A program made the position numbers and the translations under genes. A DNA stretch of 64,000 bases from Patescibacteria group bacterium. Lineage in GTDB: Bacteria; Patescibacteriota; Minisyncoccia; 2-02-FULL-40-12; GWA2-44-9. The stretch covers positions 32,585 to 96,584 of the forward strand of contig JBBTSY010000004.1 in assembly GCA_038064515.1 (NCBI GenBank), read 5' to 3'. The notes under the pieces are model-generated. The model saw only the letters and a list, made by a program, of their open reading frames with translations, was not told the origin of the DNA and ran no database searches. Below are positions 21,205 through 24,990 of the stretch, in pieces. Positions within the stretch are counted from its first letter, which is position 1. Every line of letters begins with the position of its first letter.

Positions 21205-21314
21205 AGTTTCTAGTAACTAGCTTCATGCTCTTTTGCCAAACTACAAGACCACGATGGAATCTCACCATGTCCGTACCTTAATCTAAAAACTAGAAACTAT
21301 CAACTAGAAACTAT
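21203..21314. repeat. Array of the quasi-palindromic 12-mer ATAGTTTCTAGT: one copy at 21203-21214 and two reverse-complement copies at 21289-21300 and 21303-21314
   Basis: Exact 12/12 matches. One copy overlaps the dnaX start codon and another contains the gtrA-like stop codon. The same 12-mer occurs at 31086-31097, and a near-copy at 37724-37735. Confidence 0.6.
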
Positions 21315-21916
21315 CTCCTGAATACAAGCAACCTAAAACCTACAAAGTTGAAGATGAGGGCCACGGCGGAACCGGCGATGGCGGAAATGTTCGCCCATCG
21401 AACTGCTGAAAGCCCGAAATTATCCGTGCCCAATCTAAGAACAGCGGTAAATACGATTGTATTAATTACAAGACTCAACAGGTTTATGGTAAAGAACTTT
21501 CCAATCTCGGATGCCCCGGTCCTACCATTAGTTTGAAAAACCCATGTCTTATTCCAGAAGTAGCTATGCGTTGACGCCACTAAAAATGCCGCCGCCTTAA
21601 AGAACGATAATGTTGTGCCTCCGGTAATGCTGGAAATGGAGATGAGCAGATTCAAGGTACCAAAGTCGACAACGGCATTTGTAAAACCGATAGTTGCGAA
21701 TTTACCAAATTGATTAAAGAATGCCAGCCAGCGGCCCAGAAAATATCCGAACTGGACTCCAATCATCCATAAAACGGGAATAAATACCACAAGGCTTACC
21801 CAGGGAATACCGAACAGCGGCTCAATCTTTAAAAATAGCAAGATTTGCCACGCGATAAAACCGGCTGTTAATCCGGTAATAAGCGCGGAGATAATATCTT
21901 TACGTGTTATGGTCAT
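21311..21916 (-). CDS. GtrA-family membrane protein (polyprenyl-phosphate-sugar translocation family)
   Basis: 4 TM helices, KF..VG.N..D core and the FNFVGFRLLVFRR C-terminus. Confidence 0.65.
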   Translation of the reverse strand: MTITRKDIISALITGLTAGFIAWQILLFLKIEPLFGIPWVSLVVFIPVLWMIGVQFGYFLGRWLAFFNQFGKFATIGFTNAVVDFGTLNLLISISSITGGTTLSFFKAAAFLVASTHSYFWNKTWVFQTNGRTGASEIGKFFTINLLSLVINTIVFTAVLRLGTDNFGLSAVRWANISAIAGSAVALIFNFVGFRLLVFRR

Positions 21917-24375
21917 GAAATTACAGAAACCGCAGGCTGCTGATAGCTCGATCGGATCGCATTCTCGACATCGGCTCTCGGTTGGCCGTACTTTCTTTCG
22001 GAAAGCATTTTAAGAGCCCTCGCAATCGCAGGATGCGGCGGCTTTTCTTGAATCGTTTTAATGTTGAATGGCTGGCTTGTTTGGTTCTGTATCAACAGTT
22101 TAACATGAGCTTGAAAATTATCTATGTTGAGAAGATCCTGAACGCTGAATACGGGCTCAAACTGATTTTTCAAAAACTCCGCGTCATCGGCTCCCACTCT
22201 GAATGCCACCATGGAACCGACATTTCCAAACACCGCATTCTTGATTTCATCGCGCAACTGCTTGATGTACTGATGCGCGATCACGAGATTAAGGCGATAC
22301 TTGCGGGCTTCTGAAAGAATCGTGGCGATACTTTCCGTCGTAACGGTTTGAAACTCATCAATATATAAGTAAAAATCCTTGCGCAAGTTTTCTTCCACAT
22401 CTACGCGTGATAATGCCGCCATGAGTAACTTACCCACAACCACCATTCCCAACAGGTACGCGTTAATTTCGCCGATCTGACCTTTGGAAAGGTTTACGAT
22501 AAGAATCTTTTGTTCATCAATGAGATCTCGGAAATTGAACGCGCTACGAGGCTGGGCGATGATCGGCCGCAAGTAATCATTCGCCAAAAACGGATTAAGT
22601 TTTGAAGTGACATACGGAGCCATATTGGCCAGTGCCGCGTCGCCCCCGGCCTTTTCCGCTTCCTGCTCCCAAAAATTCTTTACGAGCGGATTTGTTTCTT
22701 GCGCTAAAAGTGCTTTGCGGTATCCGGCATCAGTCAGCACGCGCGGTATTGCGGCGAGCGTCGGCATAAAGTGAGCAATACCAGTATGAACGGACCCATT
22801 CTCTTCGAACTTCCGCTGATAAATATCCAAAAGAAGCAAAATGCTATTTTTGAAATACTGTTCGAACATCGGTCCGAAAGCTTCCGGAACGCCTTCATAG
22901 AGCGATTTCACGATCGCGAGAACCTCATTGGCAACAAATGTTTTTTGTTCGGGTTTCGTCGGGTCGAACTCCAGCATGTTCAAGCCGAGCGGGAATTCAG
23001 TGCTTCCGGGATTAAAATACACGATGTCATCGGCACGTTCTTTGGGTACCATCGAAAGGACATATTCGGCAAGTTCGCCATGCGGATCGATGATACAGAC
23101 ACCTTTGCCGTTATTAATATCCTGGACGATCATGTTTTTTATCAGCGAAGATTTACCGGTGCCCGTCTGTCCCACAACATACATATGCCGGCGGCGGTCA
23201 TCATCGCCTACACGGACCATTTTTTCATCACCGCGAAAATTACTCGTACCAATCACCACGCCGGAGTCAGGCAGGTTCAACGGCGGCTCTGCGACTTTTG
23301 CCTTGAGCATTTTGATCTTGGGCGCTTGCGTGGTCGGCAGAGGGAAATGATAGATACTCGTCAACTCTTCACTCGAAAGAAATATCGTCTGCTCATTATC
23401 AAATATGCGGAAAGAGAAATTAAGGACTAAGTCTTCGAGGGCTTTCTTCCGAAGCTTCACAAGCTCCAAGCTATTGCGCTCGGGAGCTCCGAATTGCACG
23501 AATGCTCCGCCGGCATCATTGAGAATCTGCTCGGCACGAGGCTGATTATCGGCGGAGGCCAGAATGCGGATATTAACATCGTAAAGCGACCGCGAGGCCT
23601 TACTCTGAAGCGCCTCAACTATCTTGGCCTCAAATGGCGTCATGGTCTTCTGGGTTTCAACGTTCACATCGGATTTTTTCTTCTTTCCCTGCTTTGCTAG
23701 TATAAGCGCTTTATTAAAATCGTTCCCGGCTTGCATTTCATGAGCGACTTTTTGGGAAAGCGCGCGGATATTTTCCCGATGCGATGGCCGGATAAGAATT
23801 TGGATAGCCGCCCCCTCGCCTTCACGCTGTAATTTAGAAAGGGTGTTTATGACACCGCCCAACGGATCAGATTCGAGATCGTTGTACGTACGCAACGACA
23901 GAATGGGGCTAGCTTTCTGTTTAAGATATGTTCCCGCCACAACGCCTTGAGGATTAAAGATATTGTAGTCCTTCACGCGCAACACTTCGGCTACAGGATA
24001 TAGGCCGTGAACTTGCTGTTGAAAAGTCTGCTCATAACTCCGGGGAACGGCAATATAAAAGTGGATTTCCTCACCGATATGATGCACCGCCATCTCAAGG
24101 GCGAGGTACGGCTCACCGTAGGCAAATTTATTCCAACCGGTGGCGTGGATGCCGGTAAAGGAAGCGTACAGCTGTTCCATTACCGCGATTAGCTCCTTTT
24201 CAGGCTTTGGATTCGACTCGGAATCCTGGCCGCGAGGCAATGTAATCAGAAAGAGCGACATATTGAGCGCGCGGGCTACGGCCCCTTTGGAACGCACCGC
24301 TCCCAGAATAATAAGAACTGCCGAGCTCAAGATCAGCAGAACAAGCGCATAGGTTATAAGAAGAATGGGAGACAC
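21913..24375 (-). CDS. VirD4/TraG/TraD-type coupling-protein-like P-loop ATPase (FtsK/HerA superfamily) with an N-terminal TM helix and a roughly 400 aa uncharacterised domain
   Basis: MYVVGQTGTGKSS Walker A, IIDPHGE, LYIDEFQ Walker B and RKYRLNLVIAHQYIKQL (the R..G..l..Q...QL pattern of type IV coupling proteins). 820 aa. Confidence 0.55.
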   Translation of the reverse strand: MSPILLITYALVLLILSSAVLIILGAVRSKGAVARALNMSLFLITLPRGQDSESNPKPEKELIAVMEQLYASFTGIHATGWNKFAYGEPYLALEMAVHHIGEEIHFYIAVPRSYEQTFQQQVHGLYPVAEVLRVKDYNIFNPQGVVAGTYLKQKASPILSLRTYNDLESDPLGGVINTLSKLQREGEGAAIQILIRPSHRENIRALSQKVAHEMQAGNDFNKALILAKQGKKKKSDVNVETQKTMTPFEAKIVEALQSKASRSLYDVNIRILASADNQPRAEQILNDAGGAFVQFGAPERNSLELVKLRKKALEDLVLNFSFRIFDNEQTIFLSSEELTSIYHFPLPTTQAPKIKMLKAKVAEPPLNLPDSGVVIGTSNFRGDEKMVRVGDDDRRRHMYVVGQTGTGKSSLIKNMIVQDINNGKGVCIIDPHGELAEYVLSMVPKERADDIVYFNPGSTEFPLGLNMLEFDPTKPEQKTFVANEVLAIVKSLYEGVPEAFGPMFEQYFKNSILLLLDIYQRKFEENGSVHTGIAHFMPTLAAIPRVLTDAGYRKALLAQETNPLVKNFWEQEAEKAGGDAALANMAPYVTSKLNPFLANDYLRPIIAQPRSAFNFRDLIDEQKILIVNLSKGQIGEINAYLLGMVVVGKLLMAALSRVDVEENLRKDFYLYIDEFQTVTTESIATILSEARKYRLNLVIAHQYIKQLRDEIKNAVFGNVGSMVAFRVGADDAEFLKNQFEPVFSVQDLLNIDNFQAHVKLLIQNQTSQPFNIKTIQEKPPHPAIARALKMLSERKYGQPRADVENAIRSSYQQPAVSVIS

Positions 24376-24378
24376 GTA

Positions 24379-24783
24379 TTATTTCGGTTGCTCGACTTTC
24401 TTGCGGGCAACCAGCTCATCATAGAGATCATCAACCAGGGCATCATGAAACGCATCAATTAATGCGGCATTATTTGTCTTTACGGCTTGGGTAATGGCAT
24501 GCTTGAGGCTTTGATTGAAGGCAATCGCCACCAATGATTGGACGTGGTCGTCCATTCCCGAAGAATTATCTAAAGGAAGTTCTGGTACAACTGTTTGGTC
24601 ATCCGATTGTGCTTGGGATTGCTGTTGGATTTGACCACCAACAACATCGTGCAAAATCTCCTTTTCTTGAGTCTCTTTGATTGGTTCAGATTGCTCTTGC
24701 TCAAGCATCGTTTTCTTTTCCTGGAGCTCGTTTTCAAGACTTGCGATCTCTTGTTCTAGCGTTTCATTCATCCTTACACTCAC
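24379..24783 (-). CDS. Coiled-coil protein (hypothetical). It overlaps the ATPase gene by 4 nt.
   Basis: The N-terminal heptad-rich ETLEQEIASLENELQEKKTMLEQEQ suggests a coiled coil. The start is either the GTG at 24781-24783 or the ATG at 24769-24771. Confidence 0.4.
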   Translation of the reverse strand: MSVRMNETLEQEIASLENELQEKKTMLEQEQSEPIKETQEKEILHDVVGGQIQQQSQAQSDDQTVVPELPLDNSSGMDDHVQSLVAIAFNQSLKHAITQAVKTNNAALIDAFHDALVDDLYDELVARKKVEQPK

Positions 24784-24918
24784 TGACGAGTAATGGCTCG
24801 CGTTCCGCTAAGCGAAGTGCTTACAGCGCAGCAAACTATTACACGACATATTATGCTATTATCCATGACCATCCTCGCCACCAGGAACAGCTCGTCAGGT
24901 GAGTGTGAGGATTCATGG
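24763..24918 (-). promoter_or_regulatory. Long-range imperfect inverted repeat (about 26 bp arms with an about 100 nt spacer) that encloses the translation start of the coiled-coil/ATPase operon
   Basis: In mRNA sense the 5' arm is CCAUGAAUCCUCACACUCACCUGACGAG and the 3' arm is CUCGUCAGUGAGUGUAAGGAUGAAUGAA. The 3' arm contains the SD and AUG. Confidence 0.4.
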
Positions 24919-24990
24919 CTCCAGTATACCATAAAAATACGGGGTGTGGATAATAAAATGCCCATAAAATGGTATAGTTGAATAGATTTA

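Follow-up and report, generated by a model that had tools for sequence, protein, structure and literature searches.

A VirD4/TraG/TrwB-type ATPase with a predicted VirB4-like N-terminal domain and a conserved small partner in Patescibacteria

We analysed a locus within a 64,000-nt stretch of a Patescibacteria (candidate phyla radiation, CPR) chromosome (the window, in whose positions all coordinates are given unless another locus is named). The original prediction for this DNA had described an operon of three minus-strand open reading frames (ORFs) encoding a small coiled-coil protein, an 820 aa ATPase and a GtrA-family membrane protein, and all three are present as claimed (Table 1). Pfam matches and fold both show the ATPase to be a genuine P-loop motor of the VirD4/TraG/TrwB type in the FtsK-HerA superfamily. 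We lean towards placing it among the homologues of the type IV coupling proteins (T4CPs) that serve conjugation in monoderms and archaea, on the VirD4/TraG/TrwB branch of the FtsK-HerA ATPases, as a form that is chromosomal and spread across the Patescibacteria phylum. On balance we favour a role in coupling DNA or protein to a type IV secretion system (T4SS) encoded elsewhere. Its sole phylum-wide conserved neighbour is the small protein encoded immediately upstream. GtrA is probably a lineage-specific bystander that belongs with two PMT_2 glycosyltransferases.

Part of this is already known: the N-terminal domain of the ATPase is catalogued in Pfam as DUF8128, and Quinonero-Coronel et al (2025; PMC12102498) report orphan T4CP homologues in Patescibacteria. 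The main value of the original finding is accordingly negative, as neither the domain nor the arrangement was new to the databases or the literature and the association with GtrA is incidental. What appears to be undescribed is the VirB4-like character of the N-terminal domain, the universal small partner and the dichotomy between split forms with a membrane helix and fused forms without one; the available text of PMC12102498 describes none of the three.

The ATPase motor and its N-terminal domain

The coupling-protein motifs quoted in the original prediction are all present, namely GQTGTGKSS (residues 402–410, Walker A), DPHGE (430–434), YIDEFQ (671–676, Walker B) and R..LNLVIAHQ...QL (691–707, RKYRLNLVIAHQYIKQL in the window), and each has invariant columns in an alignment of 28 homologues. 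The proposed VirD4/TraG-type identity was borne out by Pfam matches above cut-off to TrwB_AAD_bind (38.9 bits, cut-off 20.5), T4SS-DNA_transf (38.2 bits, cut-off 20.1) and DUF87 (39.1 bits, above the gathering cut-off), and by Foldseek, which aligned the full-length AlphaFold2 (AF2) model with TrwB (E 1e-7, template-modelling score (TM-score) 0.50–0.57 normalised to the target) and also with Cagbeta, DotL and HerA. In the PDB, the same model scores best against full-length TrwK/VirB4 (E 1e-10), with ~900 columns aligned. The ATPase has more than 5,000 homologues; the best 120 share 55–98% identity, and the best named ones among the 120 listed come from Yanofskybacteria and Paceibacterota. HerA-type models in NCBIfam and PADLOC gave local P-loop matches only. 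A reading as a defence system was dropped, as the PADLOC matches were of the generic HerA/mad8 P-loop kind and had no defence context, and no nuclease, Sir2 or other effector partner of the HerA type was found among the ATPase neighbours.

Like TrwB, VirD4 and TraG (R388 TrwB, PDB 1E9R/1GKI), the window ATPase combines an FtsK-HerA P-loop motor with a helical insert; the window version, though not every homologue, also has an N-terminal membrane anchor. It differs from TrwB (17–18% identity) in carrying an extra ~350 aa DUF8128 domain between anchor and motor, in being chromosomal and phylum-wide without relaxase or T4SS genes in cis, and in having an obligate small partner. It has one membrane helix, where R388 TrwB has two. 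This helix, noted in the original prediction, is a single strongly hydrophobic segment (residues ~1–33) followed by basic residues (RSKG..R).

The ~400 residues that follow the helix had been considered novel and unassignable, a view that did not survive. Precomputed annotation on the exact window protein assigns the N-terminal ~350 aa to Pfam PF26449 (DUF8128), and the same family is annotated in all 120 listed homologues. A DUF8128 profile matched 3,112 cluster representatives at E <= 1e-3 among 1.84 billion proteins; the best 150 matches listed are mostly shorter fragments, with the long ones mostly of 790–865 aa or 909–932 aa. We found no mention of DUF8128 in the literature. The isolated domain model (predicted local distance difference test score (pLDDT) 72.6, predicted TM-score 0.72) significantly matches only the N-terminal half of VirB4/TrwK in the PDB, and its top 14 matches there are all TrwK/VirB4 (E 3e-6 to 2e-4, TM-score 0.34–0.40). 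A PDB sequence-profile search with the N-domain alignment returned nothing meaningful, and hhalign of the family alignment against a Bacillus plasmid VirB4-like ATPase gave a probability of 3.5%, which is not significant, with a single-sequence template that affords little power. DUF8128 is predicted to have a fold like that of the VirB4 N-terminal domain; because the TM-scores are modest and sequence profiles bridge nothing, we regard this as a likeness of fold and not as proven homology. The original prediction had asked whether this domain resembles the all-alpha domain of VirD4: the N-terminal domain itself matches VirB4/TrwK, and the place of the T4CP all-alpha domain is taken in the AF2 model by a helical insert within the motor (residues ~477–620), between Walker A and Walker B.

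Relatives outside the CPR carry the same domain. With the window ATPase as query, tblastn against plasmids returned 319 records at 22–29% identity, 24 of them with at least 80% query coverage and the best collinear over residues 67–819, N-domain included; by BLASTP, a Bacillus subtilis plasmid protein was matched at 3e-43. These plasmid proteins, annotated as 'DUF87 domain-containing' or 'type IV secretory system conjugative DNA transfer family' (Bacillus, Embleya/Streptomyces, haloarchaea), are the closest non-CPR relatives and resemble the window ATPase in both N-domain and motor. Unlike it, they are set in conjugation clusters with a replication-relaxation relaxase and a VirB4-like ATPase, and a homologue of the small partner is not evident among their annotated adjoining genes. 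On Bacillus plasmids the homologue, which has no membrane helix, lies directly upstream of the replication-relaxation relaxase gene, followed by conjugal-transfer, TcpD/TcpE-family and VirB4-sized ATPase genes. The order on an Embleya (actinomycete) plasmid is PrgI-family, ATPase, window-ATPase homologue, relaxase and NlpC/P60 hydrolase, and in a haloarchaeal plasmid cluster the homologue stands beside pilin and conjugal-transfer genes. As the position beside a relaxase gene is the classical one for a coupling protein (review, PMC12857230), gene position suggests that these plasmid relatives serve as coupling proteins.

In Haloterrigena plasmid pHTS138, the N-domain is encoded by its own 399 aa gene (L085:7737–8936), which overlaps the start of the gene for a 1,034 aa TraM-recognition ATPase (L085:8926–12030), so that in archaea the domain is a separable module. 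The two-domain architecture is also found in a few phages of Bacillus and of thermophiles. The family phrog_5156 gave a full-length profile match at 6e-78, and Bacillus phage G gp156 matched the N-domain model at E 3e-15 (TM-score 0.59), with tblastn spanning residues 106–764; both resemble the window ATPase in architecture but are phage-borne, without a T4SS context. Because the N-domain is common to plasmid, archaeal and phage relatives outside the CPR, it is not novel but ancestral to a clade of T4CP-like proteins from monoderms and archaea.

The small partner and the neighbourhood across Patescibacteria

For comparison of neighbourhoods we used 80 loci fetched from 442 confirmed GTDB loci, which with the window locus gave 81. 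The small protein is encoded directly upstream of the ATPase, or fused to it, in 72/81 loci, so the operon proposed for these two genes was well founded. Of the 72, it is a gene of its own in 43 and cleanly fused in frame in 27, and in 2 an apparent fusion runs through masked N stretches. The clean fusions, about a third of the sampled loci, give proteins of 908–968 aa in which the small protein takes over the N-terminal position of the membrane helix; the helix is present in 50/52 unfused homologues and 0/27 clean fused ones, and fusion and helix are mutually exclusive across the sampled loci. The small protein is an obligate, conserved partner of the ATPase, and because of the natural gene fusions we assign it partner status.

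Described originally as a coiled-coil protein, it has this character in roughly its first 30 residues. A variable Q/E-rich linker follows, and conservation is concentrated in a helical domain of ~55 aa at the C-terminus, with the motif KGI..A..VA.K..P..LD.FHD.LV, in which D and H are invariant in the alignment. There was no match to the small protein in Pfam, NCBIfam, PHROG, PADLOC or the PDB, nor did a PDB profile search with its alignment return anything. Its homologues number 579; where a source is named, it is Patescibacteria or unclassified bacteria and the protein is annotated as hypothetical, and the 120 listed all lack a Pfam domain. It is 100% identical to a protein of an NCBI "Patescibacteria group bacterium" metagenome-assembled genome (MAG).

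Three loci, Komeilibacteria-like and Falkowbacteria-like, have a different family of ~160 aa upstream of the ATPase (L043:5452–5922, L068:5360–5854 and L028:122–622), with the conserved C-terminal motif ..WL.I.PG.N.FF.EQ.AKIK; the L043 representative has no match in Pfam. This family may substitute for the small partner or be a highly diverged form of it.

GtrA was correctly assigned to its family (61.8 bits to PF04138 over residues 72–199, where the cut-off is 26.1), but it does not share the conservation of the small protein. It lies directly downstream of the ATPase in 9/80 other loci, whose ATPases are 44–56% identical to that of the window, and is missing there in 71/80. PMT_2 genes diverge upstream in 15/81 loci, all of one architectural sub-lineage. 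Both adjacencies occur in unfused-type loci only, GtrA being found in none of the fused-type loci. A third conserved neighbour was sought over the 81 loci and none was found, all other neighbours being lineage-specific. Because the small protein recurs in 72/81 loci and GtrA in 9/80, with the other neighbours lineage-specific, the conserved unit is a pair and not a trio, and a joint function with GtrA or in glycan translocation is not upheld. Several unfused-type loci, L008 and L061 among them, repeat the order PMT_2, pair, GtrA. In the window, the two PMT_2 genes and GtrA (positions in Table 1) resemble a module for surface glycosylation, dependent on polyprenyl-phosphate sugars, into which the ATPase pair has been inserted.

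The fused-type loci (n = 29) have other neighbours: NDK accompanies 18 of them, in 13 as the next gene downstream, a beta-CASP nuclease is found in 14 and an ADK/dNK-like kinase in 12, none of which is ever near the ATPase in unfused-type loci (fused-type examples are L067:8372–8956, L051:1323–1928 and L070:9960–11342). Across the sample, DnaX is near the ATPase in 9 loci and RmuC in 8, and further neighbours include SecY, L20, IF3, PBP and similar. At L015:6017–8422 (minus strand) and in 6 other loci, a family of ~800 aa with no Pfam match is encoded convergently downstream of the ATPase.

Coupling to a distant T4SS and the rival readings

Patescibacteria are dependent on other cells, and before theirs no T4SS had been shown to be essential for the growth of a bacterium. 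The coupling-protein homologue is the natural candidate for the receptor of its substrates. In the role that we favour, the ATPase would assemble into a hexameric ring, driven by ATP, on the cytoplasmic side of the membrane, and the small helical protein would be bound to it as an obligate adaptor or regulator. A precedent for the latter is Cagbeta–CagZ of Helicobacter pylori (PDB 8DOL), in which a T4CP is regulated by a small helical protein, an analogy of role drawn from the title of the entry. Together, the two proteins would recruit a DNA or protein substrate and energise its delivery to a relaxase-less T4SS encoded elsewhere on the Patescibacteria chromosome; GtrA would be co-transcribed with the ATPase through operon compaction only.

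The original prediction took the arrangement to be undescribed, which the literature contradicts. According to PMC12102498, 5,713 T4CP homologues occur in 2,918 of 3,035 Patescibacteria genomes (96%), or about 2 per genome; 148 of them lie near virB4, almost no relaxases are found, and VirB4 itself occurs in 2,417 of the genomes (80%). The window gene fits this published population in being VirD4-type, chromosomal, near-ubiquitous, remote from virB4 and without a relaxase. The essential T4SS cluster of Southlakia likewise has no recognisable coupling protein in cis (Wang et al, 2023; PMC10633639).

Several observations weigh against coupling to a T4SS. As the original prediction had noted, the window holds no T4SS, relaxase or integrase gene, none being found among 31 window ORFs scanned with Pfam, flanks of the trio included (~30 smaller ORFs lay outside the scan). 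As the outcome that would refute it, it had named an ordinary family with the rest of a T4SS just beyond the window; profile and context searches do give an ordinary family, that of the T4CPs, but the ~5 kb past the left window edge hold no T4SS, relaxase or integrase genes. Nor was a VirB4 or relaxase homologue found within +/-6 kb of the ATPase in any of the 81 loci. Because no T4SS or relaxase gene is nearby, homology alone links the ATPase to a T4SS. T4CP homologues are more widespread among the genomes than VirB4 (96% vs 80%), and the T4CP homologue of S. epibionticum, which may or may not belong to the DUF8128 family, is dispensable by transposon-insertion sequencing, whereas the T4SS genes are essential (PMC12102498). 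The NCBIfam T4CP models (TraD, VirD4-like CD1115, TraG) do not match at their cut-offs: the best, SXT_TraD, reaches 48 bits (6e-13) and misses its cut-off of 366 by far, CD1115 (3e-9) is also far under its cut-off, and all such matches are local, around Walker A. The full-length AF2 model is of moderate confidence (pLDDT 73), the fused forms of the ATPase have no membrane anchor, and full-length relatives occur in Bacillus phages without a T4SS.

Some of these points fit a second explanation, which we hold to be possible but doubtful: that the DUF8128 ATPase and its partner form a T4SS-independent translocase, an autonomous pump for nucleic acid or another polymer exapted in Patescibacteria, whose possible roles include the handling of imported or host-derived DNA, chromosome transactions and nucleotide scavenging. 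The genome counts above, with T4CP homologues outnumbering VirB4 and seldom near it, are in its favour, and PMC12102498 raises exaptation of the T4CP as possible from the dispensability in S. epibionticum. The Bacillus phages have homologues of equal architecture, the fused forms lacking a helix would be soluble, and DNA or nucleotide genes adjoin the ATPase in other lineages (the NDK, beta-CASP, ADK/dNK-like, DnaX and RmuC loci counted above). Each of these neighbour sets, however, is confined to one architectural sub-lineage, and because of this they look like inherited synteny. The closest non-CPR relatives are in conjugation operons, incompleteness of MAGs could account for part of the gap between 96% and 80%, and comEC-dependent DNA uptake is non-essential in S. 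epibionticum (review, PMC12857230). More speculative still is a wider form of this idea, in which the pair is an autonomous, near-universal Patescibacteria machine without a T4SS: a conjugation-derived translocase domesticated for a core task of epibiotic life, such as moving host-derived or the cell's own DNA or nucleoprotein. The split form with its helix and the fused, soluble form would then be two solutions to localisation, and the VirB4-like N-domain would mark an intermediate between VirB4 and T4CP.

The VirB4-like fold could also mean that the ATPase is a paralogue of the VirB4-type assembly ATPase and not a coupling protein, the weak T4CP profile matches being cross-family noise. We consider this unlikely. 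The window ATPase does share with VirB4 (R388 TrwK, PDB 7O42/8RTD) the two-domain layout and the fold of the N-domain, the best PDB matches of the full-length model are full-length TrwK/VirB4, the isolated N-domain matches VirB4 only, and the separate haloarchaeal N-domain gene recalls TrsD-like split VirB4 N-termini. Its motor sequence is nevertheless nearer to T4CP profiles (SXT_TraD and CD1115, as above) than to the VirB4 families, whose matches are at 1e-5 or worse: AAA_10 stays under its cut-off (18.8 against 27.5 bits), VirB4_plasma and CD1110 (E ~1e-5) are far below theirs, and CagE_TrbE_VirB in Pfam does not match at all. Neither VirB3-, VirB6- nor VirB8-like neighbours were found. The Bacillus and Embleya clusters hold a separate VirB4-sized ATPase, with the homologue of the window protein adjoining the relaxase gene; the hhalign comparison with the Bacillus VirB4-like protein was not significant, and the TM-scores to VirB4 are low (0.3–0.4).

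Repurposing of a coupling-type ATPase for envelope or glycan translocation together with GtrA and glycosyltransferases, as the original prediction had envisaged, is very unlikely. It would accord with the 4-nt overlap of gtrA, with the two PMT_2 GT-C genes diverging upstream and with the retention of GtrA immediately downstream in 9 loci despite ATPase identities of 44–56%. Against this stand the 71/80 other loci, and every fused-type locus, without GtrA downstream, the restriction of PMT_2 to 15/81 loci and the DNA-transfer contexts of non-CPR homologues. GtrA and GT-C enzymes also form a well-known, self-sufficient glycosylation pairing that needs no ATPase. Least probable of all, and rejected on composition and gene context, is that an integrated conjugative or mobilisable element left this locus behind as its remnant: the non-CPR relatives do sit on plasmids and phages, but there is no integrase, relaxase or other transfer gene here and no compositional break, housekeeping genes stand on both flanks, and motif-intact orthologues occupy housekeeping positions across the sampled Patescibacteria lineages.

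The VirB4-like N-domain, the small partner and a membrane helix that is dispensable on fusion offer starting points for mapping interactions, for co-folding and for knock-outs in those Saccharibacteria that can be cultivated.

Layout of the window locus

Table 1 Features of the ATPase locus, in window positions.
Feature	Position	Strand	Basis
GtrA-family membrane protein gene, 201 aa	21311..21916	-	PF04138, E 8.7e-17
T4CP-type ATPase gene, 820 aa	21913..24375	-	ORF, Pfam, AF2 model, Foldseek
ATPase N-terminal transmembrane helix, residues ~1–33	24277..24375	-	Kyte-Doolittle peak 2.79
DUF8128 domain, alpha/beta, residues 34–385	23221..24276	-	Precomputed PF26449 annotation, domain model
ATPase motor domain, residues ~386–780	22036..23220	-	Motifs, secondary structure, TrwB fold match
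Walker A GQTGTGKS, residues 402–409	23149–23172	-	In motor domain
Walker B FYLYIDEF, residues 668–675	22351–22374	-	In motor domain
Small partner protein gene	24379..24783	-	ORF; 134 aa counted from GTG
Divergent intergenic region between small-protein gene and first PMT_2 gene	24784..24990	.	One sigma-70-like site
Two tandem PMT_2 GT-C glycosyltransferase genes, 516 and 596 aa	24991–28356	+	Pfam

For the small protein, the ATG at 24771 (130 aa) is a likelier start than the GTG and is the one called in an independent assembly of identical sequence. Translational coupling had been proposed on both sides of the ATPase gene. On the GtrA side, ATGA joins the ATPase stop and the GtrA start in a 4-nt overlap; on the other side, the TAA of the small gene is followed by 3 nt and then the GTG of the ATPase, a tight spacing without overlap. 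The divergent region upstream of the small gene contains a TG-extended sigma-70-like site at 24950–24923 on the minus strand, which is a candidate promoter only, because promoter-like sites are no more numerous in this region than in shuffles.

The surroundings are of a housekeeping kind, with genes for DnaX, an EngB-like GTPase, a DEAD-box helicase, SerRS, LysRS, ProRS, PBP, MurB, a MurG-like protein and a Mur ligase; Lon, UvrB and glycogen synthase are also encoded there, as are the two GT-C enzymes of the PMT_2 family. GC content is 0.46–0.48 over 18–30 kb of the window, with no island.

Two minor observations concern the sequence outside the operon. The 107-nt intergenic region from the GtrA stop to the dnaX start (21205–21310, minus strand) folds as one long imperfect hairpin (minimum free energy -43.1 kcal/mol, z = -5.6 against 200 shuffles), for which Rfam gave no match. 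Its 5' arm has two direct copies of UAGUUUCUAG, pairing with CUAGAAACUA, a segment that adjoins the dnaX AUG and overlaps it; the hairpin could be a terminator or insulator, or a structure that occludes the dnaX start. Near the beginning of the window, two ORFs of ~290 aa overlap almost totally on opposite strands (356–1237, minus; 387–1247, plus), and the plus-strand ORF is probably spurious, because the minus-strand ORF is called as an EamA-family gene in an independent assembly.

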